Shown here one piece after another: positions 19,170 to 55,259 of a stretch of 64,000 bases of DNA. Positions within the stretch are counted from its first letter, which is position 1; every line of letters begins with the position of its first letter. The position numbers were made by a program, and so were the translations under genes. The stretch is from positions 682,001 through 746,000 of the forward strand of contig AP026140.1 in assembly GCA_030295235.1 (NCBI GenBank), read 5' to 3'. This DNA comes from Fistulifera solaris (taxonomy: Eukaryota). A model generated the notes under the pieces. That model was not told the DNA's origin. It saw only the letters and a list, made by a program, of their open reading frames with translations, and made no database searches.

Positions 19170-19440
19170 ACCTGTCTATGAACAAGTGGTGTTCATTGTT
19201 CAAGAATCAAGTCTTTCAGAACAAGCTTGTAGATAAATCTTGGAAATTCAATTAATGCTAGACTGTAGACTGTCTGAGAACAAGTGGTCTTTTATGACAA
19301 GCTTGAATGTTCACTGTTCACTACGCACGGAGAATTTATTGGCTGTTAGTAGAGACTGTCTATGAACAAATAATGGTGTTCATTACTTCAGAATAAATTC
19401 TTAGCGTCTGTTCTGCGAACAATGAATGTTCACTACAAAC
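19170..19440. repeat. Short dispersed repeats CTGTCTATGAACAAGTGGTGTTCA (3-4 copies) flanking the satellite
   Basis: Copies at ~19172, ~19270, ~19356 and ~19410; internal GAACA..TGTTC dyad. Confidence 0.65.
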
Positions 19441-19450
19441 AATACAACCA

Positions 19451-22367
19451 TTCCAGAATTTCTGGAACGGGCACAGAATTTATGTATGATCCAAACAACT
19501 GATTCCAGATATCTGGAACGACTACAGAATCTCTGTTTGACCCAAAACACCCATTTCAGAATTTTCGGAACAACCACAGAGTCTCTATTCGACCCAAATA
19601 ACCATTTCCAGAATTTCTGGAACGACCACCGAATCTCTGTTTGTGCCAAAATATAGATTCCAGAATTTCTGGAACGTGCACAGAATCTAGTCTATGTTTG
19701 ATACAAATCAGCGATTCCAGAATATTTGGAACGACCAAAGAATCTCTGTATGTCGCAAAACAACGATTCCACAATATCTGGAACCCAATACAACCATTCC
19801 AGAATTTCTGGAACGAGCACAGAATCTATATACAATCCAAAAAAGTGATTCCAGATATTTGGAACGACTACAGAATCTCTGTTTGACCCAAATTACCGAT
19901 TCCAGAATTTCTGGGACGACCACAAAACCTCTGTTTGTCCCAAAATACAGATTCCAGAAATTCTAGAACGATGACAGAAACTCTGTTTGACCCAATACAA
20001 CAGTTCCCGAATATCTGGAACGGGCACAGAATCTCTGTTTGACCCAAAACAATTATTCCTGAATTTCTGGAACGACCACAGAATCGCTGTTTGACTCGAA
20101 GCTTCAATCCCAGAATTTCTTGAACGACCACTGAATCTCTGTTTGTTCCAAAACACACTTTCCGGAATTTCTGGAACGGGCATAGAGTCTCTGCTCGACC
20201 CAAAAACACCCATTCCAGAATTTCTGGAACAACCACCGCATCTCTGTTTGGTCAAAAATATATAGGTCTAGATTCTATTATTTCTGAAACGACCACAGAA
20301 TCTCTGTTTCACTCAAATTACCGATTCCAGAACTTCTGGAACGACTACAGAATTTCTTTTGGACCCAATACAACATTTCCCGAATTTCTGGAACGAGAGA
20401 ATTGTCTGTTTGATCCAAAACACACTTTCCAGAATTTCTGGAATGACAAAAGAATTTCTGTTTGTTCCAAATCACCGATCCCAGAATTTCTGGAACGACC
20501 ACTGAACCTCTGTTTGTTCCAAAAGACACTTTCCAGAATTTCTGGGACGACCAAAAATTCTGTTTGATCCAAGTTACCAATTCCAGAATCCCGGAACAAC
20601 CACAAACTTTTGTACGACGGAATACAACAATTCCTGATTTCTGGAACAGTCACAGAATCTCTGTTTGACCCAAAACAACATTCCTGAAATTCTGGAACGA
20701 CCAATGAATCTCTGTTTGTTCCAAAACACACTTACCAGAATTTCTGGGACGACCAAACAAATTATGTTTGATACAAGTTACCAATTCCAGAATTTCTGGA
20801 ACGACCACAGAATCAATGTTTAACCCATTTACCGATTCCACAATTTCTGGAACGACCACAAACTTTCGTATGATCCAAATTACATATTCTAGAATTTCTG
20901 GAACCACCGAATCTCTGATCGTCCCAAAACACAATTTCCAGACTGTCTGGAACGACCAAAGAAATTCTGTTTGATCCAAATCACCGATTCCTGAACTTCC
21001 GGAACGGGCACAGAATCTATATTTGACCCAAAACAGCGATTCCTGAATTTCTGGAACCTCCACAGACTTTCGTATGACCCAAATTACCGATTCCAGAATT
21101 TCTGGAATGACCACAGAATCTCTGTATTACTCAAAACAACTAGTCCAGAATTTCTGGAACGACCACAGCTCTGTTTGATCCAAATTAATTACCGATTCTA
21201 GAATTTCTGGAACGATTACCGAATCTCTGATCGTTACAAAACACAATTTCCAGACTGTCTGGAACGACCAAAGAAATTCTGTTTGAGCCAAATCACCGAT
21301 TCCCGAACTTCCGGAACGGGCACAGAATCTATGTTTGACCAAAAACAACGATCCTGAATTTCTGGAACCTCCAAGGACTTTCGTATGACCCAGATTACTG
21401 ATTCCAGAATTTCTGGAACGACCACAGAATCTCTGTATTACTCAAAACAACTAGTCCAGAATTTCTGGAATGATTCCAGAATTTCTGGAACGACTACAGA
21501 ATCTCTGTTTGACTCGAAGCTTCAATCCCAGAATTTCTGGAACGACCACAGAATCTCTGTATTACTCAAAACAACTAGTCCAGAATTTCTGGAATGACCA
21601 CAGAATCTCTGTTTGATCCAAATTACCGATTATTCCAAAATTTCTGGAACAACTACAGAATCTCTGTTTGACCCAAAGGACCGATTCCAGAAATTCTGGA
21701 ACGACCACAGAATCTCTTTTGACCAAAACAACTAGTCAAGAATTTCTGGAACGGCCACAGAATCTCTGTTTTATGCAAATTACCTATTCCAGAATTTCTG
21801 GAACGACCACAGACTTTCGTATGACTCAATTACCGATTCCAGAATTTCTGGAACGACCACAGAGTTTCTGTACTACTCAAAACAACTAGTCCAGAATTTC
21901 TGGAACGACCACAGAATGTCTGTTTGATCCAAATTACCGATTATTCCAGAATTTCTGGAACGACTACAGAATCTCTGTTTGACCAAAAACACTGATTCCA
22001 GAATTTCTGGAACGACCAAAGAATGTATGTTTGACCCACAACAACTAGTCCAGAATTTCTGGAACGACCACAGAATCTCTGTTTTATCCAAATTACCGAT
22101 TTGAGAATTTCTGGAACGACCACATTCTTTCGTATGACCCAAATTGCCGATTCCAGAATTTCTGGAACGACCACAGAATCTCTGTATTACTCAAAACAAC
22201 TAGACCAGAATTTCTTGATCGAACACAGAATCTCTGTTTGATCCAAATCACCGATTCCAGAATTTCTGGAACGACAACAGAGGAGTCTTTGTTTGACCGC
22301 AAACAATTTTTAAAATCCATACAGAATCTCTGTTAAGCTTATGTCGTTAGACACTGATTCCAGAATT
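19451..22367. repeat. Tandem satellite array, ~52-bp monomer, roughly 55 copies
   Basis: Monomer TTCCAGAATTTCTGGAACGACCACAGAATCTCTGTTTGA plus a ~13-nt variable segment; contains the dyads TTCCAGAA-T-TTCTGGAA and ACAGA-ATC-TCTGT. Confidence 0.97.
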
Positions 22368-32688: not shown

Positions 32689-33427
32689 GATAGGATGCAA
32701 CGAATTGCGCCAAAACAATTCGGAATGATAGAACTGAGCGGCCGGGCCTGTGACGTAGTGATTGTTGACAACTACTTGGTATTGCTGTTGCACTAAGAAG
32801 TGGTTTAAATGGTTCATATCATCCAACACAGCCAAACCGGCGCATCCAACACAGCCAAAGCGGCGCATCTTTCTGTGAAATACCGTGTTGCCTCGCGGCG
32901 ACGAGAAAAACCCAGATAATGGACACCCCCAACTTCTTGACCACGAAATTCAAACATTTTCATCTTATACTGCGAAAAACACGACACTAAAAGAGTAAAA
33001 GTCTGCCTACTTGCTAATGCTATAGATGGCGGGAAAAACGAGGAAAAATCTGGGTTTTTCTATACACCCTCAACTTATTGACCACACAAAAATGAACCTC
33101 ATCTAAGCGTCACGATATTTCGGAGCATTGATAGTCTCTATTTCCTGACCTATTTTCATTTTCCCTTGTAATTCATCTCAATTACTTGCTTGAATCTATG
33201 GGAAGTTTAATCGAGAAAAGAAACACGTCGCGATTAAGCAATCTTTTTGAAAAAATTATAGGTCCGTCTAGTCGTTCCAAGGTCTTGGCTAAGGGTGCGA
33301 TACGCGCGATCCATTTCAAATTGAATAAATCATTTCAATGATCTTGACCTAGTAACTATTAACAAATGTCAGATACCAGGTATGATGAACAAAACCTGAT
33401 GACTGATATATTTAGGATTCTCCTCCC

Positions 33428-36808: not shown

Positions 36809-37660
36809 TGTGTTTTGTTGAAAGGAAGAGAGTGCAAAGAAAGAATCGTTTTATCAACCTTGCTTTCAAGTTCTTTTGATTACGGTAGCCTTCCCACAGA
36901 ACGCCGCGTTTGTTGATGGTTTCGTCTTTTGTTATTGGCGGTTATTGGTTCCGGATCTTTATCGGTCCGCCGTCAGACGCAGTGCGAACCGATGCGACAC
37001 GAAGTACGAAAAAAATTGCTTGCTTTGCACGGGAATTAGGGAATAAAATAAAAGTATATCCTCGACCATTGCCTCTTCAACGCAAAAAGAAACAACAAAA
37101 GCGGAAGAGACAATTTAGACGGGTAATATGGCTGATTCAAGAGCCTGACAATCTTCGTTGCGCTGTTCAAAGTTCTGGTAGTCGATTGCTCGACTGGTAA
37201 AACTTTGTCTCAAGCCCAACCTGCAAAGTACAAGCTCATGCGCAACCGGAACTTTAGTCATCGCTTCATCTTTGAGTGTTTTGGCGTACATGATTGGAAA
37301 TATTTTGTTTTGAAACGGCGTGAACGAGCCGTTTCTTTCTTGCTAACTGACATGCTTCGTCGGTCGGAGTCGGAGTCGCGGTTGAGCCGGTTTTTAACGT
37401 TTCTCCATTGTAATATCTCTCGATGTGTAGCCGAACGATCCTACCGGTAATCACGGGGTTTCCATTGCAAACACGAAACGAAAACTGGTCTCGAAAACTG
37501 CTCGCGTTTTATTCGCTCGCACATCGCGACTTGCCACTTTTTCTTCTCACATTTTTCTCAACCAAAGCAATTTCACTATACTTGAGCAAGACCCTGCTAC
37601 AATCAGCAGGACAAAATAAACTAAACAAGTTCATCCTCAATCTCGCCTCCTCAAGACCAC

Positions 37661-37921
37661 ATGCGTATCCCACCCCACTGCAACCCGTTCATGCATGCGG
37701 ATGAATCGGAGCGATGGTTTTACGCGGAAATGCGACAACAAGATAAGGGAAAGCGACGCTGGCGCAAACAGAAGAAGGACTCTGAAGACTTCGAGTTCCC
37801 ATGGTTCTTCATTGCGGTAATGTCTTATTACGAATACACAGAGCGTGCTGAACTACGACGCGAGGAACGCCAGCGACGTGCCAAGCAACTGGCCTCTCAT
37901 CAGCGTCGTCAAGGACAATGA
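37661..37921 (+). CDS. Small Arg/Lys-rich hypothetical protein (paralog 1)
   Basis: MRIP..NPFM..DESE N-terminus shared with the ORF at 38887. Confidence 0.5.
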   Translation: MRIPPHCNPFMHADESERWFYAEMRQQDKGKRRWRKQKKDSEDFEFPWFFIAVMSYYEYTERAELRREERQRRAKQLASHQRRQGQ

Positions 37922-38886
37922 AGAAACGGCAAAGAAGGGAAATACCAAAGTTATAATACTCAGTGTAATGGGAAACTGTCAAATGCGATTGGACCGATAC
38001 GACTGTTGCTTTGATCACGTGAAAAGAAAATGAAGAAAAATTTCATCGAGGCGGCACATTTGTTCCATGAATACATGAAAGCACATGTAAGCGAGAATAA
38101 AATAGATAGTAAGATAGAACTATAGATATTATCACTGCGTTAATATAGGGTTAATGCATGTGAGCTTATGTATTACCTAGACTTCAGCTTTTTCATTTAC
38201 AATGGTGGGGAGGGGCAAGACTTGCAATGACGCATCGATCCGACGCATCGCATTTGTAAGATAACCGTAAAAATTTGATGTGATTAGCTGCACAATGCGA
38301 TGTCGTGAAAAAGGAAAAGGAAAGAATCTTTTTATGGTTTTGAATTCGCTGATTGAAGAGCTGTCGGTATCCCGTTTCGCGGTAATCGTCCTATATAGGC
38401 TCGTGCTTTGATCTCCAGCTCTTCAACTGAAAGGCGCGTATGAAGTCTTAGTCGTCAAACCGAAGCTCAAGTGTAGCCGATATCTCAGTATTGTCTTGAG
38501 TCTTAGGCTTTATGAGTTTGAGATTGGAAACCTCTTGTTTGGAAACGACGTGAATGAACCGTTTCTTTCTTGCCAAGACTGACTCGGTCTTTGATTGGAG
38601 TCGCGGTTGTGCCGGTTTTTAACGTTTTCACATTGTAATGTAGCTAAAGGTGTAGCCGAACGATCCTACCGGTAATCACGGCGTTTCCATTGTAAACACG
38701 AAACGAAAACTGGTCTCGAAAACTGCTCGCGTTTTATTCGCTCGCACATCAGCGACTTGCCACTTTTTTCTTCTCACATTTTTCTCAACCAAAGCAATTC
38801 ACTGCACTTGAGAAAGACCCTGCTACAATCAGCAGGACAAAATAAACTAAACAAGCTCATCCTCACTCTCGCCTCCTCAAGACACC

Positions 38887-39264
38887 ATGCGTCTCCCAGC
38901 CCGCATCAACCCGTTCATGGATGACTCGGAAAAGCGGCTCCACGCGGAAATTCGACGAAACAATCAGGAACAGCGGCGCCGGCGCAAGCTCAAGAAGAAG
39001 TACGAAAACTCCAGGCGCTCGCTGATCCTCGCCGGTCCTGGCTTATCTTATGCACAAGGAACATGCTCGAATTCGTCGGGAGCTACGCTAAGCGGGATGC
39101 CGAGCAACGAGCCTCCTATCGACGTCAGCAGAAAACCAAGAGGAGATTGCAACGAATGGAAAGGGAGAAAGCGAGAGCATATGAACCATCGGTCTGGGGT
39201 AATTTTCGTACCTATTGAGCAAGCTATCCACGGTTATTTAATGACGATTAGAAGACATGAATAG
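38887..39264 (+). CDS. Small Arg/Lys-rich hypothetical protein (paralog 2); probably frameshifted
   Basis: MRLP..NPFM.DSE N-terminus; ATG in the same position of the duplicated unit as paralog 1. Confidence 0.5.
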   Translation: MRLPARINPFMDDSEKRLHAEIRRNNQEQRRRRKLKKKYENSRRSLILAGPGLSYAQGTCSNSSGATLSGMPSNEPPIDVSRKPRGDCNEWKGRKREHMNHRSGVIFVPIEQAIHGYLMTIRRHE

Positions 39265-39653: not shown

Positions 39654-40110
39654 TGTCACGGATATGCGGATAGCGGGCAGACTACTAGGGACTCACCCAA
39701 TTTAGCCGCACGACCTAATGCGAACCACGACCCCCAAATCGGAAGCCTTCGGACGGAACCTCATGGGAGAGGCCCAAGGGTCTTTGTACGATTTGGATTG
39801 ATCGTGAAGGCGTGAAAAGTTTGCAAGCAACGCGATACAAGAATGTTAGAGCCACATCATTGAGCTCAGAATTTCAAGATAAAATAAGACCTAGTCCGAT
39901 GGCAGAGTGACATTCTCGGCGGAACCATCACCCAGTGAGGTTCCACCTTGATCATTTGTCGGATTTGTAAAGGCTTATAATATTGTTGTTTGGAAAACTT
40001 TGACTGTTTTATCGTCTTAGGCTACCAGATACTTCCTCTTCTGTTGTTGCTAAACGTGGCGACTTGGTTGACAGAAAATACTTCCAATTTCTGTCCGTCG
40101 ATACGTGAGA
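39654..40110 (+). repeat. 5' LTR of copia A
   Basis: TGTCACG...CGTGAGA; near-identical to 46268-46724. Confidence 0.97.
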
Positions 40111-40124
40111 GGTTACGAGCCCAG
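40111..40124 (+). promoter_or_regulatory. PBS of copia A, half-tRNA-iMet type
   Basis: GGTTACGAGCCCAG is close to the GGTTATG(A/G)GCCCAG PBS that pairs with the iMet anticodon region in Drosophila copia-type elements. Confidence 0.7.
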
Positions 40125-40213
40125 GTTTACACTATCTGGTACAGTCTTTTTGCAGTTGTTTGATACACGTGCCCTACTTACTCCCTTTTTTGTCGTCCTT
40201 CGTTATTCGCGAT

Positions 40214-43200
40214 ATGTCTTCCGAAACCGAAGCTGATGACAGGAAACCTCCTCCGGTTCTAACTGGTTCTACACTCGCGTTTTCACCGAGCGCAAAAGTC
40301 GAAACGAATGTTCAGGCCACTTTTTCCGAGCCCGTTCTCGTGCCGAAGTTCGGCCTTGTTCAAAGTTCTATCCCAGCCATTGGCGGTGCTCCGGATGCAA
40401 GCTTTACTCGCAGTGTTAACCTTGTGCCTGCGACGCCCTACTGCTTTCGAGATCCGAATCCGTATCGCGCCGAGAAAAGTTTCAAGGATCGCATCTCCGG
40501 TCTCGACCCCAAGTTCAGTCCTACTGCGAATGACTATCGCCTTGTTGAGCTTGCGGATGCAGCGTTCAACCATTGCATTACGCATGGTCTCGATACGCCG
40601 TTCTTCATGAACGATCCTGCCGATCTCAGTCGTGTTATTGATCTCTTTGTCTACCACGGCAAGTTCACCTTCGATGAAGTTGCGAAGCACCTCAAGACAT
40701 GATCAAGTCCGGTGTGTTTGATCAGTATATGATCAATTCGCTTAGCGATTCGGCTGCTTTTCTGTTTAGCTCGTTGGAGGCGCTCCTTCCAGCGCCGCGA
40801 TTCGAACTTCTTTGAGCTCTGCTCATGCGCGCCTTGGACCTTTGGTTTGGATGAAAATCACCGAAGAAGTTCTTCCAAACGCCTTTCGCCGTGTCTCCGA
40901 ACTCGAAGAGGTGTTCCGCATAAGCGCAAGTTGGTCGAAACTCCCGGAGAAAATGTTGCTGCCTGGGGCGAATGCGCAGATGGAGACTTTGCAAGAGTTG
41001 GAGGCCAATGATCAGCTCCCTCGCGATCACTTGGTCATTTTGCAGCAGCAGCTGTGCACTTGCTCGGTCGAAGGATTCCGTGTTCACTGGCACACGAAGC
41101 TCGCATCCCTCTCCGACTTTGTGCGTCTCTCTGCCGGAAAGTCGAAGGAAGTTGCTGAAACATGAAGCAAAGGATGTCTACAGCAACCTAAAAGAAGATT
41201 GGGGACCGGCTAAAGGAACTACTACTGAAGTTAGTGCTAATGCTGCGGCGATCAAGAGTCTCAAAGCCGAGTTCAAGACCCTCAAGTCGAAATTCGAGTC
41301 GAATGGCACTAAAACTGCCTCCCTCGAAGACCAAGGACAAGAAGGCGAACAAAGACAAGGCTGCTACGAAGACTGGCGGTGGTGATGGCGAAAAGAAAGG
41401 CGGCGGTTCGACCGAAACTCGTTGGACTCGCATCGCGCCGAAGGATGGAGAGCCCACCACCATGACCAAGTACGGCAAGACTTTCTATTATTGCGCCAAA
41501 TGCAAGCTGGAACCAGACCCATGGAACCGGCGAGCACAAGAGCAAGGAAGAGAAGCCCGCTGATGCCAAGCCCGCCGCTCCTGCCGCTAATGTTGCCCAA
41601 GCTTGGACGGCACCCTTGCAGTTCTGTTGGGGTTCCGACAGCGATTCGAATAGGAAATCGGCAGGGAAGGTGAACCTTCGATCGAGGTCCCTTCCTGAGC
41701 CTTTTGTCCGTCCTTATCGGTCGTTTATTGTTGGAGTTGTCGCCGAAGCATTTTATTCTTTGCTGGTTGATTGTTGAGTGTTTTTCTTGGTGGCGTCATT
41801 TCCGTGTTGCCGCGACCATTTTGAAGTGGTTGCGTGCCCAAAGTGCCGCTCATCGTCGCTCTCTTGGTCTTCGGCCGCGATTCAAACCTTTGCCCGAGCG
41901 TCTCATCTCTCTCCCGTGTCGTTTCATGGTGCTTTCTTCCGATCATGACGAGCATGTGGCGAGTGACGCTTACACTCGGAGCCCCTGGTGTTGTTTATGG
42001 AGTCAACTTGGTGCCCGCCTGGCATGGCTGCCACCAGTTTCATCCAAGTGAACGCAGCCGGCGTTTACGCCGACCTCCTGATCCTTCTTCATCATCAAAA
42101 GCTTCGAATTGTCAGCATGGTGAGGGTGGTGTTTTTCGGCCGAAAGCAAAATCGTTTTGTTGAGCCTGCGAGAAAACGTTGAGGACGACTTCGAAGTGAT
42201 TCCGCGTTGGGCCTTAGAGCTTCCGGATATGATAGATCGGAACGGTCATTTGAATACCGAAGTCGTTTGATTTGCCGTGTCCGGCCGAACGAGCATCCCA
42301 CGCCCCTGGCACCTACTAGATGACACTTCATTATTCTGTTACCCCACCGGGCATTCTCTTCCAGAGGGAGCTACTGAGACGATGTTGCTTCGAGAGGGAG
42401 ATAATAGTGTAGACAAATCTAGAGCCTACTTTGCACCGTACGCGAAGCTTCCCCCGTCTATTTATGCCCTCCCTGCTCTGCATCAAGTCCATGTCGCTGG
42501 AAAACCGACCATGGCGAATCTGTTTCCGGTTATATGGGACACTGGAGCCACAGTTGCTGTTACATTCGACCGTGATGACTTCACATCCTACACCCCTACT
42601 ACTGGCGATACAGTTTTGTCTGGCTTTGCTGCAGGTTCTTCGATTGCCGGCACAGGTACTCTTGAGTGGACTGCTACTCTGTCAAACGGCAAGGGCTTTA
42701 TTTTTCGGATTCCCGGATTACATGTGCCCGAGGGCGAATGTTCGACTCTTCAGCCCACAGTCCTATTGTCAATTGGTGAAGGCGCAACGAAACGAACCGC
42801 GTTTTTCCGGCGACTTGAGCCTCATTCATGTCGATTTGTTGGACGGCCACTTTCTTGATATTGCATACTCTCCTGAAAACAATTTGCCTACGTTGGAGAT
42901 GTTCCGAAAACAATCTGTTGCTCTCAATGCTGCGAAGATTCAAAACTGTGTTACTACAGCTGAGAATCAAAACTTGAGTGAGGCACAGAAGTTTCTTCTT
43001 CGCTTGCATTTCCGATTTGTTCACCCGAAGCATGAAAAGCATTCAAGCCTTGCTCAAAACCGGCGCTCTCGGAAATTCTGCTGAAGTCCAAGCGGCGGCG
43101 CGTTGTATGATTCCCAAGTGCGCTGCTTGCATGTATGGAAAAGGAAAGCGCAAGTCGACTGGAGCGAAATTGACCGTCGATCGCCAATCCAAAGTTCTCT

Positions 43201-46200
43201 CGAAGGATATTTTAATTCCGGGCCAGAAGGTTTCAATGGATCACTTCTCTGTTTCAACGAGAGGACGTCTTTACTCTGGTTTCGGTGGTACCAAGGATGA
43301 TGAGAAGTTCAAAGGCGGTGTGATTTTTGTCGATCATGCAAGTGGATTTGTTTATGTCGTTCATGTTTTGAATTTTACTGCTGGCGAGGCTTTGCGCGCC
43401 AAGTTGGAGTTTGAAAGTGCAATGGCGAACCACGGCATCACGGTGGTCCAATATCATACCGACAATGGCACGTTTACGGCGCAGGAGTTCGCAAAGCAAA
43501 TTGATACGAACTACCAGTCGATGACTCTCAGTGGACCTGGTGCTCACCACCAAAATGCTGTTGCTGAGCGCAATCGGAAGTATTATATCTCGCACGCACT
43601 ACGATGCTACATGCTAAATTGCGTTGGCCGAAAGCGATTTCTTCGGACTTGTGGCCTCAGGCGATTGATTATGTCGTTCAAAATTTCAACTATGGACCCG
43701 GCGAAAACAATACATCTCCGGCTGATATGATCTTCAGAACAACGACCGATCGAAAAGTGTTTGCTGATATGCATGTTTGGGGATCACCCGCGTATATTCT
43801 GAACCCGAAGTTGCAAGATGGGCACAAGATTCCGAAGTTTGAACCTCGCTCAAGACGCGGCGTTTTCTTGGGTTTGTCGGCCGGCATGCATCGAATGTTC
43901 CTGTTGTTTTGAACCTAGAAACGAACCGGATTTCCGCGCAGTTTCATGTTGTTGTCGATGATTGGTTTGCCACTGTTTGAATGTTGTCGGTGCGGATGAT
44001 TCTGTCGATCCGAAGACTTGGGCCGACATCTTCGCATCGTCTCGCTTCCAAGTATTTTTCGATGAGGATGATCCGATCGACTTGGATGACGAGTGGTTGA
44101 GTCAAGAAGAGTTGCATGTTCGAATTCAAGAGCGATCTCGCAAGATTGGCGTTCAAGACAATGCTAGCCCCCCGGTTGATTTCGACAAGGTGCACCAGCG
44201 ACTGCGAACAGATGCCGAACCTACGACTGAAAAGAGTTCAAGCGAGCCTACATTGCAGAGGGAGCAAGAGCAAAAGACAGTTACTACTCCTGTTAAACTA
44301 CCTGAGCCAAATTCAAAACCGGTTGAGCCGATTCCTGCTCCCAAGGTTGCTGTGGATGCCAAGCCTCCATCAAGTTCGCGCGGAAGAAGACACCAGCTGC
44401 TCCTACCGAACCTCGCCGATCCACTCGCGAGAGACGTGCTCCAAGAAAGTTCAATGAATTTATTACCAACGCGTTGCCCCGGTTGTTCTTGCGCCGATTC
44501 CTCGCGAAACTTTCTCCTTTATTGGCGTCGATTCATTCCGGCCTTGTTGCTTGTTGGGATTCGGAGCTCGGCGAGTTTGATTTGCGAGATCCTGTTGCTT
44601 TCGCCGCTATGCAGCGTGTAAAGAAGCCAAAGAAAGGTTCCGATCCCGACTATCCAATGTATCATCAAGCTATGTCGTCTGCTGAATATCGAGAATGGCA
44701 AGATGCGATGGTGAAAGAAATTCGAATGTTGGAGAAGATGGGGACATGGAGGAAAATTCCGCGAGCTTCTGTACCTGCAAATAAGCGCGTGATAAAGTCC
44801 ACTTGGGCGTTTCGGCTTAAGCGTTCACCGGATGGGACACCCACGAAGTACAAGGCGAGATTCTGTGTTCGTGGCGATATGGAGATAAAAGGAGTCGACT
44901 ATTTCGAGTCCTACTCTCCTGTCGTACAGTGGTCCACAGTCCGGTTGTTGTTGATTATGTCCATCGTCCATGGAATGCATACCCGCCAAGTTGATTATGT
45001 CAATGCGTTCGCTCAAGCCCCTTTGCCGCCCTACTGAAGAGTGCTACATCGAGATGCCTCAAGGATTTCACGGCGATGGCGAAGATACTGTTTTGATGCT
45101 CCAGAAGACGGCTTTATGGCAAGTCCGATAGTCCACTCCGATTCTTTAACTTGCTGAAGGACACTTTGGAGAAGCATGGTTTCAAACAGTTGGTCGATAT
45201 CGATGCTTGCCTGTTCGTGCACGAGAAAATTATTTGTTTGACTTACGTCGATGATTGCCTTTGGTTCAGTCTCGATGAAAAGTGCATGGATGAGATGATC
45301 GAAGCTATTGACAAGGTTCTGACTTTGACTGTGGAGTCGAAAGATGTTTCCCGCGTTCTTGGGAATTCAGTTTACCCGTCGTGGCGATACTATCGAGTTG
45401 ACCCAGAAAGGTCTCATTAATCGCGTCATCGAAGCTACCGACATGGCTGATTGTAATTCTTGCGACACGCCTGCTGAAAACAAACCATTGGGAAAAGATT
45501 TGGCTGGTGCTGCATTCGCCGAGTCTTGGAATTATGCTTCGGTTGTCGGAATGTTGCTCTACTTGTCGTCAAACTCTCGACCGGATATTGCATTTGCTGT
45601 CCATCAGTGCGCTCGCTTCACTCATTCGCCGAGGCAAAGTCATGCTAAAGCGATCAAGAGAATTGTCCGCTATTTGAAAGGAACGGCCGATCGTGGTTTG
45701 GTGATGCGTCCGACGAAAGAGTTGAAGATTGATTGCTTTGTTGATGCCGACTTTGCCGGTTTGTGGGGAGCTGAAGATCCTGAAGATCCGATAAGTGTGA
45801 AGTCGCGTACTGGCTACATCTTGACGCCGGCAATTGCCCCCTACTTTGGGTATCGAAGCTACAGTCTGAAATCTCTCTAAGTACAATGGAGAGTGAGTAT
45901 GTCGCATTGAGTACTGCTATGCGCGATGTTTTGCCGATGCGAAGACTTGTTACTGCTGTTGCTAAGGCTATTACTGGAGAAGATCAAGTCGAGAGCATTG
46001 CCCATTCGGATGTATTTGAAGACAACAATGGAGCGCTCACTCTTGCTACGATTCCGCGGATGACCCCTCGCTCGAAGCACTATGCAACCAAGTATCATTT
46101 CTTCCGACAACATGTTCAAAGTGGTGAATTGAAGATCAACAAGATTGACACTAAAGAACAGCTTGCGGATATCATGACGAAAGGATTGCCTAGGGAAACG

Positions 46201-46239
46201 TTTACCTATCTTCGGAGACAAGTTAATGGGTTGGAATGA
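40214..46239 (+). pseudogene. gag-pol of copia A, broken by many frameshifts
   Basis: YYCAKCK knuckle, WDTGA, CAAC..GK, TDNG..F, HQNAVAER, KARFCVRGD, YVDD, RPDIAFAV and ADIMTK. Confidence 0.9.
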
Positions 46240-46267
46240 AAGTGGTCCCTCTTCGTCTGAGAGGGAG

Positions 46268-46724
46268 TGTCACGGATATGCGGATAGCGGGCAGACTACT
46301 AGGGACTCACCCAATTTAGCCGCACGACCTAATGCGAACCACGACCCCCAAATCGGAAGCCTTCGGGACGGAACCTCATGGGAGAGGCCCAAGGGTCTTT
46401 GTACGATTTGGATTGATCGTGAAGGCGTGAAAAGTTTGCAAGCAACGCGATACAAGAATGTTAGAGCCACATACGTGAGCTCAGAATTTCAAGATAAAAT
46501 AAGACCTAGTCCGATGGCAAGTGACATTCTCGGCGGAACCATCACCCAGTGAGGTTCCACCTTGATCATTTGTCGGATTTGTAAAGGCTTATAATATTGT
46601 TGTTTGGAAAACTTTGACTGTTTTATCGTCTTAGGCTACCAGATACTTCCTCTTCTGTTGTTGCGAAACGTAGCGACTTGGTTGACAGAAAATACTTCCA
46701 ATTTCTGTCCGTCGATACGTGAGA
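46268..46724 (+). repeat. 3' LTR of copia A
   Basis: Follows the PPT, ends CGTGAGA and is followed by the TSD. Confidence 0.97.
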
Positions 46725-46811
46725 GGCGCGTCCTATTACCAGTATTTTTTCTCATTTGCTGCAATCATGGACAACAGCAATGCCGTCAATGAAGGATAGA
46801 AAACAAAAGCA

Positions 46812-48468: not shown

Positions 48469-49137
48469 TTATCGGTCTCGCCGGATGACCATTTTGGGTA
48501 AAGAGTCTAATAAATCAAGAGCTTCCCTGTTGATCGCATCAACGACATCAAATGTTGATTGGAGAGCTTTGACGAGCCCGACGCCCTGTCCTGCGTGGAC
48601 CACACTGATATCCGGATTGCCTTGTTCAACGGCATCCTTGTATTCTCGAACAACACTACTGTCTGGGGAACGAATCGCAGCGACAAGATTTTCCGATGGC
48701 TGCAAATCCCATTGCCTCGAAAAATCGTTATGTACAGCCCCGATCGAGTCAAAGGGATAAGGCCATGGAGTGCTGCTGTAAGAATTCTGTATTGCATCAA
48801 ACACAGGGGTGCGGATGATCTCATCGCACGATTCTACTTCTACTAGCCGTTGCTTCACGGACGCTTGTCCTCTGGATTCACTCGTTGCCCATAAACGAGT
48901 TCCCAGCACGACACCGTCACATCCAAGTGCCAAGGCGGCCACGAGGCCTCGCCCCATCCATAATACCCCCGGCTGCGAGAACAGGCGTGTCGGAGTCGTA
49001 CTCACTGCGAACAATCGAAACAGCTGTGGAAGCAAATGATAATGTGCCGTTTCCTAACTCTCGACGTAAGCCGTGACCTCCGGCTTCTGAACCTTGTACA
49101 ATGATGCCATCGGCACCAGCGTCCAAGGCCATCCTTG
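48469..49137 (-). pseudogene. Nitronate monooxygenase (2-nitropropane dioxygenase), 3' part, cut off by copia B
   Basis: AGADGIIVQGSEAGGHG, VLAAGGIMDG, GVVLGTR and AGQGVGL. Confidence 0.9.
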
Positions 49138-49488
49138 TGTTGGAATCCACTTCCGGCTCGGAGCGACCTGCGGTGTTTAACTTGTAGATCTGTTAAGCTC
49201 CGAGCTTGTATAGTGAATAGGTAGAATCAATAGTCTCTTTCTTGTCTTTTCTTAGTCTTAGTTGTTACTGTCTACTGGATTCATCCGAATCAATGAGCAC
49301 ATTGATTCGGACGTGCTCTGGTCATTCCTCTTCCAGCCACTCGATCAGCCCACGTTACCGACTTACTTGACTCGCCGATACCTCTGACTGTTCGAGTACT
49401 TAGATGCTCAACGTCAACGCCCTCTGCTAGTTTCGCCTGACCGGAAGTCGCTTTTTCAGTCACGACCGGGACTGGATTTTCTCCAACA
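49138..49488 (-). repeat. 3' LTR of copia B
   Basis: Near-identical to 54487-54839; preceded on the element strand by the purine tract GAGGAGCG. Confidence 0.97.
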
Positions 49489-52400
49489 CGCTCCTCGACT
49501 TCGGTGGGCGGAATCTCGCGGAGGGTGTCCACATGCTTGTAACCTAAAATGACATCTCTGAATTTACTGAAACAAACTTCCGTTCAGCGGTTTAGTGAAG
49601 AAATCCGCCAACATCATCAACGTAGGGCAATGTTTGATATCAATGCCCAAATCTCGAGTCCTATCCTTAATCCAGAAATATCGAATGTCAATGTGTCGTG
49701 ATTTTTGTCCCGCGGACATTCTACCATTTGTCTCCATTCTGATCGCGCTTTCATTGTCTTGTTCAAAAACAATTTCCTCCATCTTGTGTCCTTGAGCTTC
49801 CATGAACATTTTGGTCCACATGGTATGTGGTAGGTAATCACTAGCTCCAACTAACTCGGCTTCCGTCCGAACTTTTCGTATTCAACTTTTGTTTCGACGA
49901 CTTGCACATCAAACCTCCATTGCCTAGCGAAGTGATTCCTCCTGTATGACTTTTCATGTCGGGATGTACAGCGAAAGCGGCATCAACCCACGAGTGAAAT
50001 CTGTTCAAACTGTCGGCTCCAAGTGTATACGTCAAATCAATACTTCCTTTGATGTACTCCAACACTCGCTTGAGTTTCGCTTGATCCTGCTTCGTACTTT
50101 TTGTCACTCTAGTACAGAGGAATGACACCGGCAATAGAATATCCATCCGTCCACGTGTGGCCACATATAGCAATTTCGCCACGACGCTACGAAAAATTTC
50201 CGATTCATCTCCAACCAAAGGTTCCGATTCCTCATCAATATCAAAGAGATTCGATCTCGCTGGTGTTGTAGCCTCTCGGGTAATGTCCAATCCCGACTTC
50301 GTCAATACTTTCTTGTAGATAATCTTTCATCTGGATCTCCACGGTTCGGTTCGAATTCAACGAAATATCCATACCGAGGAACTTGTGCTTTTTCCACGTA
50401 ATCGACATCTTTCCAAACTTTGCTTCAATATCCTTGATAACTTGTGTCACGACTTCGGGATCTACGTGGGAAACTTTCATATCATCCACGTACCACGCGA
50501 TGGTGCATTGTTTTCCATTTATTTTCTTGTTCGCGATACAACTGTCGTACGGGTTCAATTCGAAACCCATATCGACCAATGACCCGGCGAACATCTCATA
50601 CCACAAAAGCGCACTGCAAACGCATCCGTACAAAGCTTTCAGCAGTTGCACGTACAACACTCGCTTGCCTCCTTCGATGGCAACAAATTCTTCATACTTT
50701 GGGTTCATCTTACACATGATATTGACGGACTCTCCGGTGAACTTCAGTAGTGTAAAGTCCGCCATATTAGCCTTCAAATATGCTCCGACGACATCAGCAA
50801 TAGCGACATCTCTTCCTTCATGCGCATCAACGATTAATGATAACAAAAGGGCATCTGTCGAAACGGTCGGAGAAGCTGTTTGCGATTTGTCGTAAAGGTC
50901 TTTTGCACGCTTCCATCGGCCACCGTCCGTCCTTTGATCCGTCCGTCGCGTTTCTTCGTGACTAAATTGATTGCGCGGCGCAGCTCGTTTTGTTCCGCTG
51001 TCAAATCTTTTGCGTGCATCGCCATGAACACTCCCAAATCTTCCAATTGCGCAAATTCATTCATTAAAGCTTGAACAGCGTCTTCTCCGGTAAAGTTTAA
51101 TCGCTGCTTTAGCCGTCAATTGCGCAAAGACTCGCTCAAAAATAATGTTTCGGAGTTCTTCGACGTTTCTCTTTCCTTTCGGGCTCACCATCATTTTTGC
51201 TTTCGTCGGCGACATGCATGGCCGCCTGAAATAAAACCGTTTGAAACAATACGGTCGGTGTCTCGTATGCTTTACTGCTGTGGGGCTCATCCATGGCCTC
51301 GATTAATCTTGCAGGAGGCCTAATAGAGGCCCTGTTTCTCAAATGGTACGTCGCTCCTTGCTCGTTGTCAATTACCGTCTCTTCCGGGTCGGCACCCTCA
51401 TTGGTATCATTTTCCGCTCCTTGCGCTTCATCAAATATCTCATCATTTCCCGCTCCTTGCACTTCCTCAAGCACAGGTTCATCTATATTGTCCGCTCCTT
51501 GCTCTTCCTCGAGTATTGGAGCTTGTTGTTCATCGTCGTCGTTGTCAAAGTTGTCATTATTTTCGTGGTCGTTATCGCCGTCGTCGGCATTTTCGATGCC
51601 GTTTTCATTGTCATCATTCGGGAAAGTTTCATTTTCGTTTTCATTATCGGGGAAATCATGGTTTGGGATGTGGGGTTCAAAGTTTTGGGGGTCTTCTTCT
51701 GTGGGTTCGGTGTCGTCAATTTCGATGCTGGGATCTTCCGCTCCTTGATCTGTCTCTAGATCGGAGACGAGATCACCAAATTCAGCATCGGGGTCGACGG
51801 TACCACCCCATTCAACAATCAACCCGGTTTTTTTGAATAAGTGGCTGTTTGTCTTGTGTCGCGAGCAGTTCAACTTGATTGACAACTGCTTCTGTGATGC
51901 GACAGACAGTCCATTGATGTCTAACAATCAGCTCTCCAGAGGCCAGTGACATGAAATAATATCGCGCCTCCGGCGTTTCCCGTGGAATTTAGTGCAATGG
52001 CGCCGTGTGTGCGAGAGCGGGGTGTATTGGACGGTTTCGGTGCGTCGTACACTTGGGCATAGGTTCCAAACTCGAGTTTCAACTTGTTGTAATCAGGTGG
52101 CGGGCTTCCTGTCATGATGGTTTCCGGCGAGATATCTTTTGAGACGCCATATTTCCAGGGGAAAATATTCAAACAATTCACCACGTGCATCATCAGGTGT
52201 CGAATGAAAACGGTAGGAAGTTTCTTGTAGGGGAGCCCATGAATGGTGGTTCGAGCTCTCTCCTTAATTGTTCTGTTGGATCGTTCTATCTCGGGAACAT
52301 GCGTATTTGGCGCGACAATGTCAAGTACAACCGGCCCTAAATCGTCGCGCAAGCATGCAAATTCGTTGTCGCCGTGAATTGCAGTAACTGGGAGGCCCCG

Positions 52401-54345
52401 ACTGCGGTAAATATCCAGCAGTCGCCGGATTTCCTTCAACATCACTGTTTTTGATCGATCCGGGACCGGCGCAATGGTGCGCCATCCAATATTCGGGATA
52501 TTGTCACTAGAAACGGAATTTTGTTGACAAAAACATAGTCAACTGCCAGCGTCCACGTGGTCGTGGTGCAGCAAGATTGACATTGGCACAGCAAGTCGGA
52601 CTTGATCCGGTACGTGTGCTGGAGGGGGTCCTGCTGTCGTGGTTCCTTTCAGTTTTGGAACATCGGGTCCATAGATGGTAACAGCTCGTCGCGCATCATC
52701 CACGGTCACAGGGGAGTTGTGAATTCTGTTGTTCCTCAAATAATCTTCAAATGCCGCGTGGCCAGGTCGATTAAGAATCTTGTACAATCGTTGAGCTTCA
52801 TCTGCAAGCTCCACTTGCCGTTTGGTGAACAGTTTCTTTGTCTCTTCTACGGTGAGTACAAAAGAATAGGCGCTAACAGACTGATTATTGTTAGGTTTAA
52901 AAACGTACAACCCACAGTCATGTTCTTCAAATCTCATCTGTGAACCGTCAAGGCGATGCACAATAAGTGCTGGCTCCACTGATGTGTCCATTGTGATTCG
53001 GCACACCTTTCTCACATCTTTCACCGACAGGATGTTGGCGATTGAATCTTGGTTGTACCATACAGGTCCTAAGTTCGGGAAGTCGCCGATCAAATGCGAG
53101 TCTTGGTGTCCGCCATTCGTTATAGCCCGCATCACATCACCACTGTCGCGAATGTTGCTCAAATAGTCCTTGTTATTGAATACTGACACGGATGACTGTG
53201 TATCTAGAAGGATCCACGCTTTATCTATGTGTCCAACCGCCTGCTAAGCCATCACGAAACCCATCGATAGCAAAGTAGTTTCTTTCTTGTTAGGTTCATT
53301 ACAATTTCCTGAGTAGTGCCCATAACTGTTACAATTGTAGCATAGGATGTCTGGATATGTTCTTCCGTCATTCCCTGCAATTACGCACACGTCGCCTTGA
53401 ACAAAAGTGTGGTTAGTAGCAGGAGTAGACCCCTTAGCTTGTTCAGTCTTGTTTCCTCCTTGATTGTGAGTCCCGCGCTGGTGCTGATGTGACTCGTTTA
53501 GCGGAACCTCGTACAAATTCACAAGTGCAAAAGCGGACGCCAGGTCTTGCGGGTAATTATCGTTTCCTTTTGCGAAGTCATTCTTGAGTTCACCCAAAAG
53601 TCGCCCGCCGTCCGATCCAGACCCTTTAGATACGCCCGTTCGCGATAGCGCAGTCCAGCGCGTAACTTTTACGGGCCGTCTCGCCTCCGACGGACGATGG
53701 GACGTTCTTCCAATCTCCCGTCACGCTCCCTCCACAGTGTTTCACAACGTCGGCTAGCGCTTTCAGCCTTTTCATGTATTCTTCGGGTGATTCTCTTGTT
53801 CCTTGTTCGCGGGTGTAAAAAGCAACTTTCGCTTCATGCTCGGATATCATGGGGTACGATGGTCGTCAAAATTCATAATGATGGCCTTGATTTGCGTCAG
53901 CAGCCACACACAGTCGTGTTCGTCGTGTTTTTCGTCGAAATCGGCCAGCGTCTTGATCTTGCCTTGCAGTGCTGCACTTGTTTGTCCCCACATAATAGCG
54001 TGTAAAGCAACATTGTTTGTCTCCAGTTTCATCTCTCTTTTGCGCACTCTGTCAATTTTGCCGCTCGAACCGCTTTCTTGTCGTCAGAGGCATCTGCCGG
54101 TAGCGGCTCGGGGTATTTCACTTCGGGCCTCTTCATTGGGTCTTGAAAAATGGACGCCAATTCCATGTATGACTCCTTCACTGTTCCTGTTTGTGCAACT
54201 TCCTTTAGCTTGTCTTTTGTCTTGGTGAACTGAGTCGGGTCATTGGCTTCCTCCGGTAGCTCGAAAACATGCCCATCCATTTCCTTGAAAGAGCCAGCGG
54301 AACTTTTTCGTCATCCCTTGATTGACTCCGCGACCTGCTGCACCA
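49290..54345 (-). pseudogene. gag-pol of copia B, broken by frameshifts
   Basis: Consecutive minus-strand ORFs with gag, PR, IN, RT and RNaseH motifs; 5' boundary approximate. Confidence 0.88.
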
Positions 54346-54472
54346 TTTCCTCTTCCGCCTTTACCTCCGCGGTTCTTGTTGCCTCCCCCTTCCAGCCGGT
54401 GCCGGTGCTGGAGAAGGACTTGCTCCTTCAGGCACTGGAGAGGACATTGTCTGTCAACCGGTCAAAAGTCTT

Positions 54473-54486
54473 TTGATTCGGATGAA
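54473..54486 (-). promoter_or_regulatory. Non-tRNA PBS of copia B (TTCATCCGAATCAA), complementary to the element's own LTR
   Basis: Directly follows the 5' LTR; exact reverse complement of 54629-54642. Confidence 0.75.
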
Positions 54487-54839
54487 TGTTGGAATCCACT
54501 TCCGGCTCGGAGCGACCTGCGGTGTTTAACTTGTAGATCTGTTAAGCTCCGAGCTTGTATAGTGAATAGGTAGAATCAATAGTCTCTTTCTTGTCTTTTC
54601 TTAGTCTTAGTTGTTACTGTCTACTGGATTCATCCGAATCAATGAGCACATTGATTCGGACGTGCTCTGGTCATTCCTCTTCCAGCCACTCGATCAGCCC
54701 ACGTTACCGACTTACTTGACTCGCCGATACCTCTGACTGTTCGAGTACTTAGATGCTCAACGTCAACGCCCTCTGCTAGTTTAAGCCTGACCGGGAAGTC
54801 GCTTTTTCAGTCACGACCGGGACTGGATTTTCTCCAACA
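54487..54839 (-). repeat. 5' LTR of copia B
   Basis: TGTTGGAG...TCCAACA on the element strand. Confidence 0.97.
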
Positions 54840-55259
54840 CCTTGCTTCTTTCATACTGCCTACTTGACACAGTACCTTCGCGTTGTATTTATGAGCCATC
54901 TTAATGTTGGTCATATCTTTTTGCTCATCGTGCACAACAACTGCCGGAGCGAAGAATTGTACTACAGCAGGTCGGTGTTTGTCAAGTATAAATTCAAATC
55001 GTTTCCACCCTTCCTGTGAACCAAACGTAGAAAAGCAAAGGAATCCGATGCTCAGGGGATAGATATCATCCTTTCTAAATTCCTCGATGTCTTTTTCAAT
55101 TGAGGTGACTTCTTGTAGATGACCCGCCGCCAAAAAACCTAGACCTCCTGCACGACACACTTCGCAAGCATTCAAAGCATTAACATGATTCGCCATCGGG
55201 GCACCCATAATGGGAAGACGAGCAGGAAATCGTCTCGTAAAACGTGTCGACCATGTCAT
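54840..55259 (-). pseudogene. Nitronate monooxygenase, 5' part
   Basis: LPIMGAPMA..AGGLGFL..QVGS; removing copia B and one TSD rejoins KEAR|MALDAGADG in frame. Confidence 0.9.

Follow-up and report, generated by a model that had tools for sequence, protein, structure and literature searches.

A putative self-primed, tRNA-independent origin of reverse transcription in a recently mobile Ty1/copia element of a pennate diatom

The window, by which we mean the whole stretch of 64,000 nucleotides that was analyzed, carries on its minus strand an LTR retrotransposon of 5702 bp (54839 to 49138). Its features are listed below in window coordinates, in the direction of the element.

54840 to 54844 (upstream copy) and 49133 to 49137 (downstream copy), minus strand: target-site duplication CAAGG, 5 bp, from the sequence and from read contigs
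54487 to 54839, minus strand: 5' LTR, 353 bp, TGTTGG...CCAACA, from direct repeats D1 and D5 and the sequence
54631 to 54662, minus strand: hairpin at the U3/R border, in which the PBS-like copy TCCGAATCAA (54660 to 54651) pairs with the first 12 nt of the primer arm
54643 to 54645, minus strand: TCA of the initiator-like motif TCA/T(+1)T, with the predicted transcript start at 54642
54628 to 54642, minus strand: predicted self-primer TTGATTCGGATGAAT, the first 15 nt of R, exact complement of 54487 to 54473
54470 to 54642, minus strand: predicted R-U5-PBS leader RNA, whose fold is closed by the 15-bp primer/PBS helix
54473 to 54487, minus strand: candidate primer-binding site (PBS) ATTCATCCGAATCAA, whose first base is the final LTR base and which does not start with TGG
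53244 to 54446, minus strand: gag region with its ATG at 54446 and a CCHC zinc knuckle within 53244 to 53720; 1-nt indels break the window copy
51921 to 52538, minus strand: integrase-like region upstream of the reverse transcriptase, 96% identical to the Fistulifera solaris polyprotein P0001
50241 to 51056, minus strand: reverse transcriptase (RT) of the copia type (RVT_2; Pfam PF07727, E value 2.4e-15)
49489 to 49496, minus strand: polypurine-like tract GAGGAGCG, directly adjoining the 3' LTR, with the in-frame reading ..EER..
49138 to 49488, minus strand: 3' LTR, 351 bp, with second copies of the primer arm (49293 to 49279) and of the hairpin, from repeats D1, D5, I1, and I2
49867, 51828, 51962, 52553, 53637, 54037, and 54385, window positions: one-base indels relative to the read contigs X1 and X2

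The ends of the element are those expected of Ty1/copia: the LTRs run from TG to CA (TGTTGG...CCAACA), and CAAGG stands on either side. The two LTRs have the same sequence except for a small indel patch. The initial annotation had described the element as copia B, and what it had said of the sequence stood; only its LTR bounds had to be corrected slightly, to 54839 to 54487 and 49488 to 49138. Furthermore, contigs of the runs X1 and X2 connect 49132 to 54840 with 5 letters shared, and this empty-site allele, with a single CAAGG and without window positions 49133 to 54839, was seen in a wetland metagenome run and in a run labelled organism A. An allele without the copia element thus exists, and therefore, the insertion is recent and polymorphic. 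As judged from the near-identical LTRs and the empty-site allele, the element is a genuine, recently mobile insertion. At its downstream end, GAGGAGCG presumably functions as the polypurine tract, and the junction of GAGGAGCG with the TGTTG of the LTR is kept across relatives. The polyprotein frame (49290 to 49583, minus strand) continues through this tract into the 3' LTR (..EERVGENP..); given this frame and the conserved junction, the start of the LTR is also under coding constraint.

The window holds further repeats. A second LTR element (39654 to 46726, plus strand) has LTRs of ~459 bp (TGTCAC...GTGAGA) and an apparent duplication, GGCGC. Its 5' LTR is followed by GGTTACGAGCCCAGG, which is one base off the complement of the anticodon-arm region of the tRNA-Met of L067, a metagenome locus treated below, and its PBS, GGTTACGAGCCC, looks like one of the half-tRNA type as judged from its letters. 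A satellite-like array with a period of ~52 bp, at least 40 copies, and the palindromic core TTCCAGAAATTCTGGAA extends from 19366 to 22345. Two direct repeats, ~1225 bp apart and 90 to 92% identical (families D9 and D10), lie within 37372 to 38923. An exact 14-nt inverted repeat, GAGAAAAACCCAGAT and ATCTGGGTTTTTCT, was found in the region of 32904 to 32917 and 33048 to 33061, with 130 nt between the copies; it adjoins no LTR and was rejected as an LTR-linked pair.

The coding region assigns the element to Ty1/copia. In addition to the window element, RVT_2 was found in three full-length relatives, as required of the RT of this superfamily. Searches with the RT led to copia polyproteins of diatoms, with 84% identity between the RT fragment and a protein of Fistulifera solaris; of the 120 best homologues, those that carry a name are of diatom origin without exception. 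The zf-CCHC match in the gag region has an E value of 8.4e-4, slightly below the Pfam cut-off. Less clear is the nature of the region between gag and RT. A Pfam search of the window element and its relatives did not find rve (integrase), and a profile search of the PDB for an integrase gave only a zinc knuckle or CCHC-like match. The structure model of 51921 to 52538 has a pLDDT of 54; with this low-confidence model, the top 14 ranks in Foldseek are retroviral integrases, with a best E value of 0.057 and nothing at or below 0.001. The model thus gives a weak hint that the region might be an integrase. P0001 has only ~190 residues after RVT_2, and therefore, any integrase must lie upstream of RT. 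Membership in the Tf1/sushi group (Ty3/gypsy chromoviruses), which calls for a gypsy-type RT and for an integrase (and chromodomain) downstream of RT-RNase H, was rejected, since the element has an RT of the RVT_2 type and its polyprotein stops ~190 residues past this domain.

The polyprotein frameshifts of the window copy coincide with the one-base indels listed above. The X1 contigs all differ from the window at seven of the seven sites, and the X2 contigs do so fully at five and partly at 51828 and 52553. Since the read contigs disagree with the window at the frameshift sites, the breaks in the polyprotein may be assembly errors or copy-specific; probably, the indels are an error of the assembly or a defect private to this copy. 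The distance from the PBS to the gag ATG is only ~26 nt in the window element. In four related loci (L022, L030, L059, and L070; first 450 nt), the PBS is soon followed by an additional short ORF with many Q, L, and E residues, upstream of the main gag ATG.

On the strand of the element, the 5' LTR ends in ...GGATTCCAACA at 54487 and is followed by TTCATCCGAATCAA (54486 to 54473). The initial annotation had claimed an exact complement of the PBS inside the LTR, of 14 nt or, with the terminal LTR base, 15 nt. Indeed, a repeat scan gave two arms of 15 nt (54473 to 54487 and 54628 to 54642) that are 100% complementary and 140 nt apart. The further copy that had been announced for the 3' LTR was located at 49279 to 49293, and exact copies of the 14-mer occur at these three sites only in the 64-kb window. 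The junction was also read correctly as one without a PBS of the TGG type: it is CA/TTCATCC, where the slash marks the end of the LTR, and lacks the TGG of a complement to a tRNA 3' end. When the LTR was shuffled 2000 times and compared to the 25 nt at the junction, the longest complement was mostly 5 to 7 nt and at most 11 nt (once in 2000), compared to the 15 nt observed. The neighboring LTR element (39654 to 46726), taken as the negative control, has an LTR complement of only 6 nt at its junction. According to the published criterion, self-priming is predicted from an LTR complement of at least 10 bp that begins 0 to 5 bp after the LTR (Neumann et al. 2019, in the accessible text; PMC6317226); here, 15 of 15 nt pair, starting with the last LTR base. 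The predicted leader RNA (54642 to 54470) folds with a minimum free energy of −48.3 kcal/mol, compared to an average of −27.5 kcal/mol for its shuffles (z = −6.25), and the helix that closes the fold consists of these 15 bp.

A profile built from 21 polyproteins led to 80 related loci on metagenome contigs. In all seven loci with unambiguous LTR pairs (the window element included), an exact complement of 14 to 15 nt starts from the last LTR base, and its partner segment lies 116 to 178 nt from the LTR end and varies in sequence from element to element. When the loci were scanned without bias for exact inverted repeats (at least 12 nt, with a spacing of 60 to 320 nt), 61 pairs in 52 loci emerged, compared to 9 pairs in shuffled loci. 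Pairing together with the junction signature was present locally in 48 of the 80 loci and, with L038 and L058, in which it was seen via the other LTR copy, in 50 of 80. In these 50 loci, it is exact, 14 to 18 nt long, and flush with the LTR end without exception. The other 30 comprise 24 loci without a 5' leader, one (L040) with a truncated 5' LTR, and 5 with a junction that end before the LTR arm; the junctions of these five likewise begin with TT, and in L059, the final 6 nt of a matching arm are still present. None of the 80 loci has both partners and yet no pairing, and since the 30 unpaired loci each miss one partner, there is no counterexample among them. The pairing reaches down to loci with 35 to 37% polyprotein identity to the query (L038, L047, L049, L057, L060, and L080 being the most divergent). 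The test for PBS/LTR complementarity in sister elements, which had been set beforehand, thus gave exact complementarity in every locus with both partners (50 of 80, with 33 distinct sequences). From these sequences, the pairing is a trait of the family. The arms are 15 nt long in most loci and 16 to 18 nt in a minority, whose share is roughly that of chance extension. Both arms have 16 nt in L048 and L053 and 14 nt in L016, so a change of length is compensated on either side.

To the notion that the inverted repeat arose by chance or as an artefact of the assembly, we give hardly any credence. The window assembly does show 1-nt indel differences from the read contigs, but 15 nt compare to a maximum of 11 nt in 2000 shuffles, the arm is present in both LTRs, and 50 independent metagenome loci have the same arrangement; on these three grounds, the notion was rejected.

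A host tRNA, half-tRNA, or tRNA fragment might bind the PBS, with an only incidental match in the LTR. Priming by a tRNA or half-tRNA is the rule in copia elements, and half-tRNA-primed members (copia of Drosophila; Osser, Bryco, and Bianca) have a conserved PBS that matches an internal part of tRNA-Met or tRNA-Ile, according to the accessible text of Neumann et al. 2019 (PMC6317226). The diatom elements resemble these in their noncanonical PBS without a TGG start; they differ in that their PBS varies between elements and fits the LTR of its own element in each case. Indeed, we found 33 different PBS sequences, each of which matches its own LTR, and this is incompatible with a shared tRNA or tRNA fragment as the primer. 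Furthermore, no junction starts with TGG: in the 50 paired loci and the 5 truncated junctions, 55 of 55 begin with TT. ARAGORN predicted no tRNA in the 64-kb window and a single one, the tRNA-Met of L067, in the 15 larger loci that were scanned out of the 80, and it has at most 7 nt in common with any arm; Rfam gave nothing above its threshold and one subthreshold chance match. The half-tRNA-like PBS of the neighboring window element, in turn, comes without an LTR complement. Priming by a tRNA is therefore very improbable, and as far as sequences can tell, a tRNA primer is effectively excluded. As an observation in its own right, the tRNA-Met gene of L067 (4422 to 4493) lies ~800 nt downstream of the LTR primer-arm motif (arm at ~3615), and a tRNA-proximal insertion of this element is possible.

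The initial annotation had proposed to look for covariation between the PBS and the LTR segment in related copia elements, and such covariation was found. The 49 tabulated loci have 32 distinct arms, which makes 33 with the window element, and these 33 leaders were aligned with MAFFT. In the 15 pairs (columns 7 to 21 versus columns 245 to 259 of alignment A2), 98.0% of 495 cells are paired, a cell count that is inflated by related sequences, and in 13 of the 15 pairs, both partners have changed. The score for covariation is 0.722 compared to 0.159 ± 0.020 in shuffles, none of which (0 of 500) reaches it, and pairing falls to 40 to 53% if the partner is slid by 1 to 3 columns. RNAalifold, given no hint, returned exactly these 15 pairs and no other helix. 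On a quick RT tree with 33 rows, whose resolution is incomplete (support is below 80% for 16 of 30 inner branches), parsimony counts 76 arm changes over the 31 in-register rows, and every one of them is matched in the PBS; the tree-free minimum of compensated arm changes is 29 to 31. Both G-U cells and all of the unpaired cells come from L016 (14 nt) and L048 (16 nt), the rows that are out of register, and no G-U pair was found among the in-register rows.

Conserved leader helices with other roles occur in retroelements. The arms might thus form a long-range RNA helix for packaging, dimerization, translation control, or circularization of the genome, while some host RNA acts as the primer; after all, a priming role of the pairing is read from sequence comparison. 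We regard this as distinctly improbable. The 3' arm begins exactly at the last LTR base in 50 of 50 loci with both partners, which is the one site for a primer of the minus strand, and no alternative PBS is apparent. Moreover, a helix kept for its structure alone should tolerate G-U pairs, and none is present in register, which fits the copying of one arm from the other. The purely Watson-Crick pairing would thus be better explained by templated copying than by selection on RNA structure alone.

If the LTR arm is the primer, its position relative to the transcript start becomes important. The arm is immediately preceded by GCTCA, in agreement with the initiator-like TCA that had been seen there before, and TCAH(+1)W has been proposed as a diatom initiator-like motif (Kadono et al. 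2015, in the accessible text; PMC4686930). In 29 of the 32 distinct elements, TCA is followed by A, C, or T, which is the first arm base and the presumed +1, and then by A or T; in 29 of 32, the complementarity also has a sharp 5' edge right after the TCA. These sequences agree with an RNA that begins with the arm, as in Tf1, and has its +1 at 54642. A few metagenome contigs (L058, L059, and L080) begin in or near the arm, which is no proof of a transcript start, and the contig ends were checked for poly(A) tails, of which there were none.

Where U3 is predicted to end, immediately upstream of the LTR arm, lies a feature that is absent from the initial annotation: TCCGAATCAA is a 10-nt copy of part of the PBS. 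The hairpin that it forms with the arm (54662 to 54631) has 14 bp and −21.1 kcal/mol (z = −5.0). A complement of at least 7 nt to the element's own arm was found within 40 nt upstream in 19 of the 32 distinct elements and in none of 32 in the next 40 nt upstream, which served as the control. On average, the arm matches its own upstream region over 6.66 nt and the regions of other elements over 4.25 nt, and none of 5000 permutations reaches the observed value. The hairpin thus covaries. If transcription starts at the arm, the RNA contains the hairpin solely in its 3' LTR copy. We hypothesize that it keeps the 3' primer copy from competing for the PBS; were the 3' copy used and cut, the 3' R that is required for strand transfer would be severed. 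If transcription began upstream of 54662, the 5' primer copy would also be in a hairpin, and the primer would no longer be the very 5' end.

Complementarity and covariation name the sequence that pairs with the PBS and not the molecule that supplies it. A primer that is encoded by the element might therefore stem from another molecule, be it a copackaged second genome acting in trans, the 3' LTR copy, or a short LTR-derived RNA, with transcription starting elsewhere. Such a source has in its favor that a second copy of the arm sits in the 3' LTR and that the start at 54642 is a prediction. We nevertheless hold it to be unlikely, since the sharp 5' edge coincides with the initiator-like TCA in 29 of the 32 distinct elements, the U3/R hairpin would mask the 3' primer copy, and the primer of Tf1 is made up of the RNA's own first 11 bases (PMC7175516, in its accessible part).

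In sum, our data point toward Tf1-like self-priming as the best reading of the feature, which, as judged by sequence comparison, is quite probably the tRNA-independent replication origin of a recently mobile Ty1/copia element of a pennate diatom, one that by protein identity is close to Fistulifera solaris. In our model of self-priming, transcription would begin at 54642, directly past the TCA of the initiator-like motif. The first 15 nt of the RNA, and thus of R, would fold back over ~140 nt onto the PBS, flush with the end of U5, to form a duplex of 15 bp. By analogy to Tf1, the RNase H of the element would nick the RNA at the 3' end of this duplex, and the resulting 3'-OH would prime minus-strand strong-stop DNA. 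In retroviruses, the attached tRNA primer is copied by plus-strand strong-stop DNA; in the diatom element, plus-strand strong-stop synthesis would copy the primer while it is still joined to the minus strand, and the PBS would be regenerated from the primer in every cycle. If rebuilt in this way, the arms would stay perfectly Watson-Crick complementary. The U3/R hairpin, being present only in the 3' LTR copy of the RNA, would mask that primer copy, with the result that only the 5' end primes.

To our knowledge, self-priming has been tested and proven only in Tf1 of fission yeast and has been predicted elsewhere for a few lineages. It is established for Tf1 and Tf2 of Schizosaccharomyces pombe and inferred for the Tf1/sushi group of Ty3/gypsy. 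According to a review, the first 11 bases of Tf1 anneal to the PBS, with the RNase H cut falling between bases 11 and 12 (PMC7175516). The diatom element is like Tf1 in that the PBS after the 5' LTR matches a segment inside the LTR (the transcript start as shown for Tf1 and predicted here), without complementarity to a tRNA. It is also like Tf1 in that the 5' end would fold back over R and U5, by ~140 nt in the diatom element, with the nick by RNase H assumed from this analogy. In contrast to Tf1, it belongs to another superfamily, with an RT of the RVT_2 type, its duplex has 15 bp (14 to 18 in relatives) compared to 11, the pairing takes in the last base of U5, and there is the additional, covarying hairpin at the U3/R border. 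We found no description in the literature of a masking hairpin of this kind in Tf1-type elements, and the covarying hairpin, if it masks the 3' primer copy, is possibly a new twist.

Within copia, self-priming of TAR-type elements reportedly goes back to Capy 2005, which is cited by Neumann et al. 2019. Neumann et al. 2019 predicted it in silico for the TAR lineage of plant Ty1/copia elements, to which Houba and Osr-1 belong (accessible text; PMC6317226). The initial annotation knew of no earlier description of self-priming in a copia lineage, and in view of this prediction, that part of it has to be given up; the notion of the element as the first case of a Tf1-like mechanism in copia does not hold. 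Like the plant TAR elements, the diatom element is a copia element with an LTR complement of the length and position asked for by Neumann et al. (PMC6317226); unlike them, it resides in a diatom and not in a green plant. GalEa copia elements of fungi are described, in the accessible text of Donnart et al. 2017, as having no PBS and instead a "conserved hairpin site" (PMC5445492). As in GalEa, a tRNA-type PBS is absent from the diatom copia elements, and a conserved self-complementary feature is found at the position of the PBS. As far as that text goes, the feature of GalEa is a local palindrome or hairpin after the LTR without an LTR complement, whereas the partner in diatoms lies 116 to 178 nt inside the LTR. 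For diatom copia elements, we searched the literature for self-priming and the PBS and found no report, with most subscription journals outside the coverage; by a term search in its accessible text, the paper on the diatom CoDi elements does not discuss priming (PMC2806351).

The pairing also bears on how such elements are found. A pipeline with LTRdigest that retains only LTR candidates with a recognized PBS has been applied to a diatom genome (PMC7466962, in its accessible part). If LTRdigest recognizes a PBS by its complementarity to tRNAs, such filters would drop the whole diatom family with the putative self-primer.

For this family, our comparison would add a large, active diatom clade to the cases of self-priming, with unusually clean comparative evidence in the form of dozens of independent compensated changes, and it suggests that copia elements, like gypsy elements, acquired or retained a way of priming without a tRNA. 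It also predicts, exactly and testably, where transcription starts (54642) and what serves as the primer in a mobile element from a group of oil-producing diatoms. Should the U3/R hairpin prove functional, it would add a new point of control to reverse transcription by self-priming. More tentatively, and with considerable doubt on our side, an entire, old clade of copia elements in diatoms may have abandoned tRNA priming in favor of a self-correcting pair of primer and PBS and a covarying anti-primer hairpin at the U3/R border. If this were true, the PBS would be rewritten from the 5' end of the RNA in each cycle and the hairpin would distinguish the two copies of R, in elements whose polyprotein identity goes down to ~35%.
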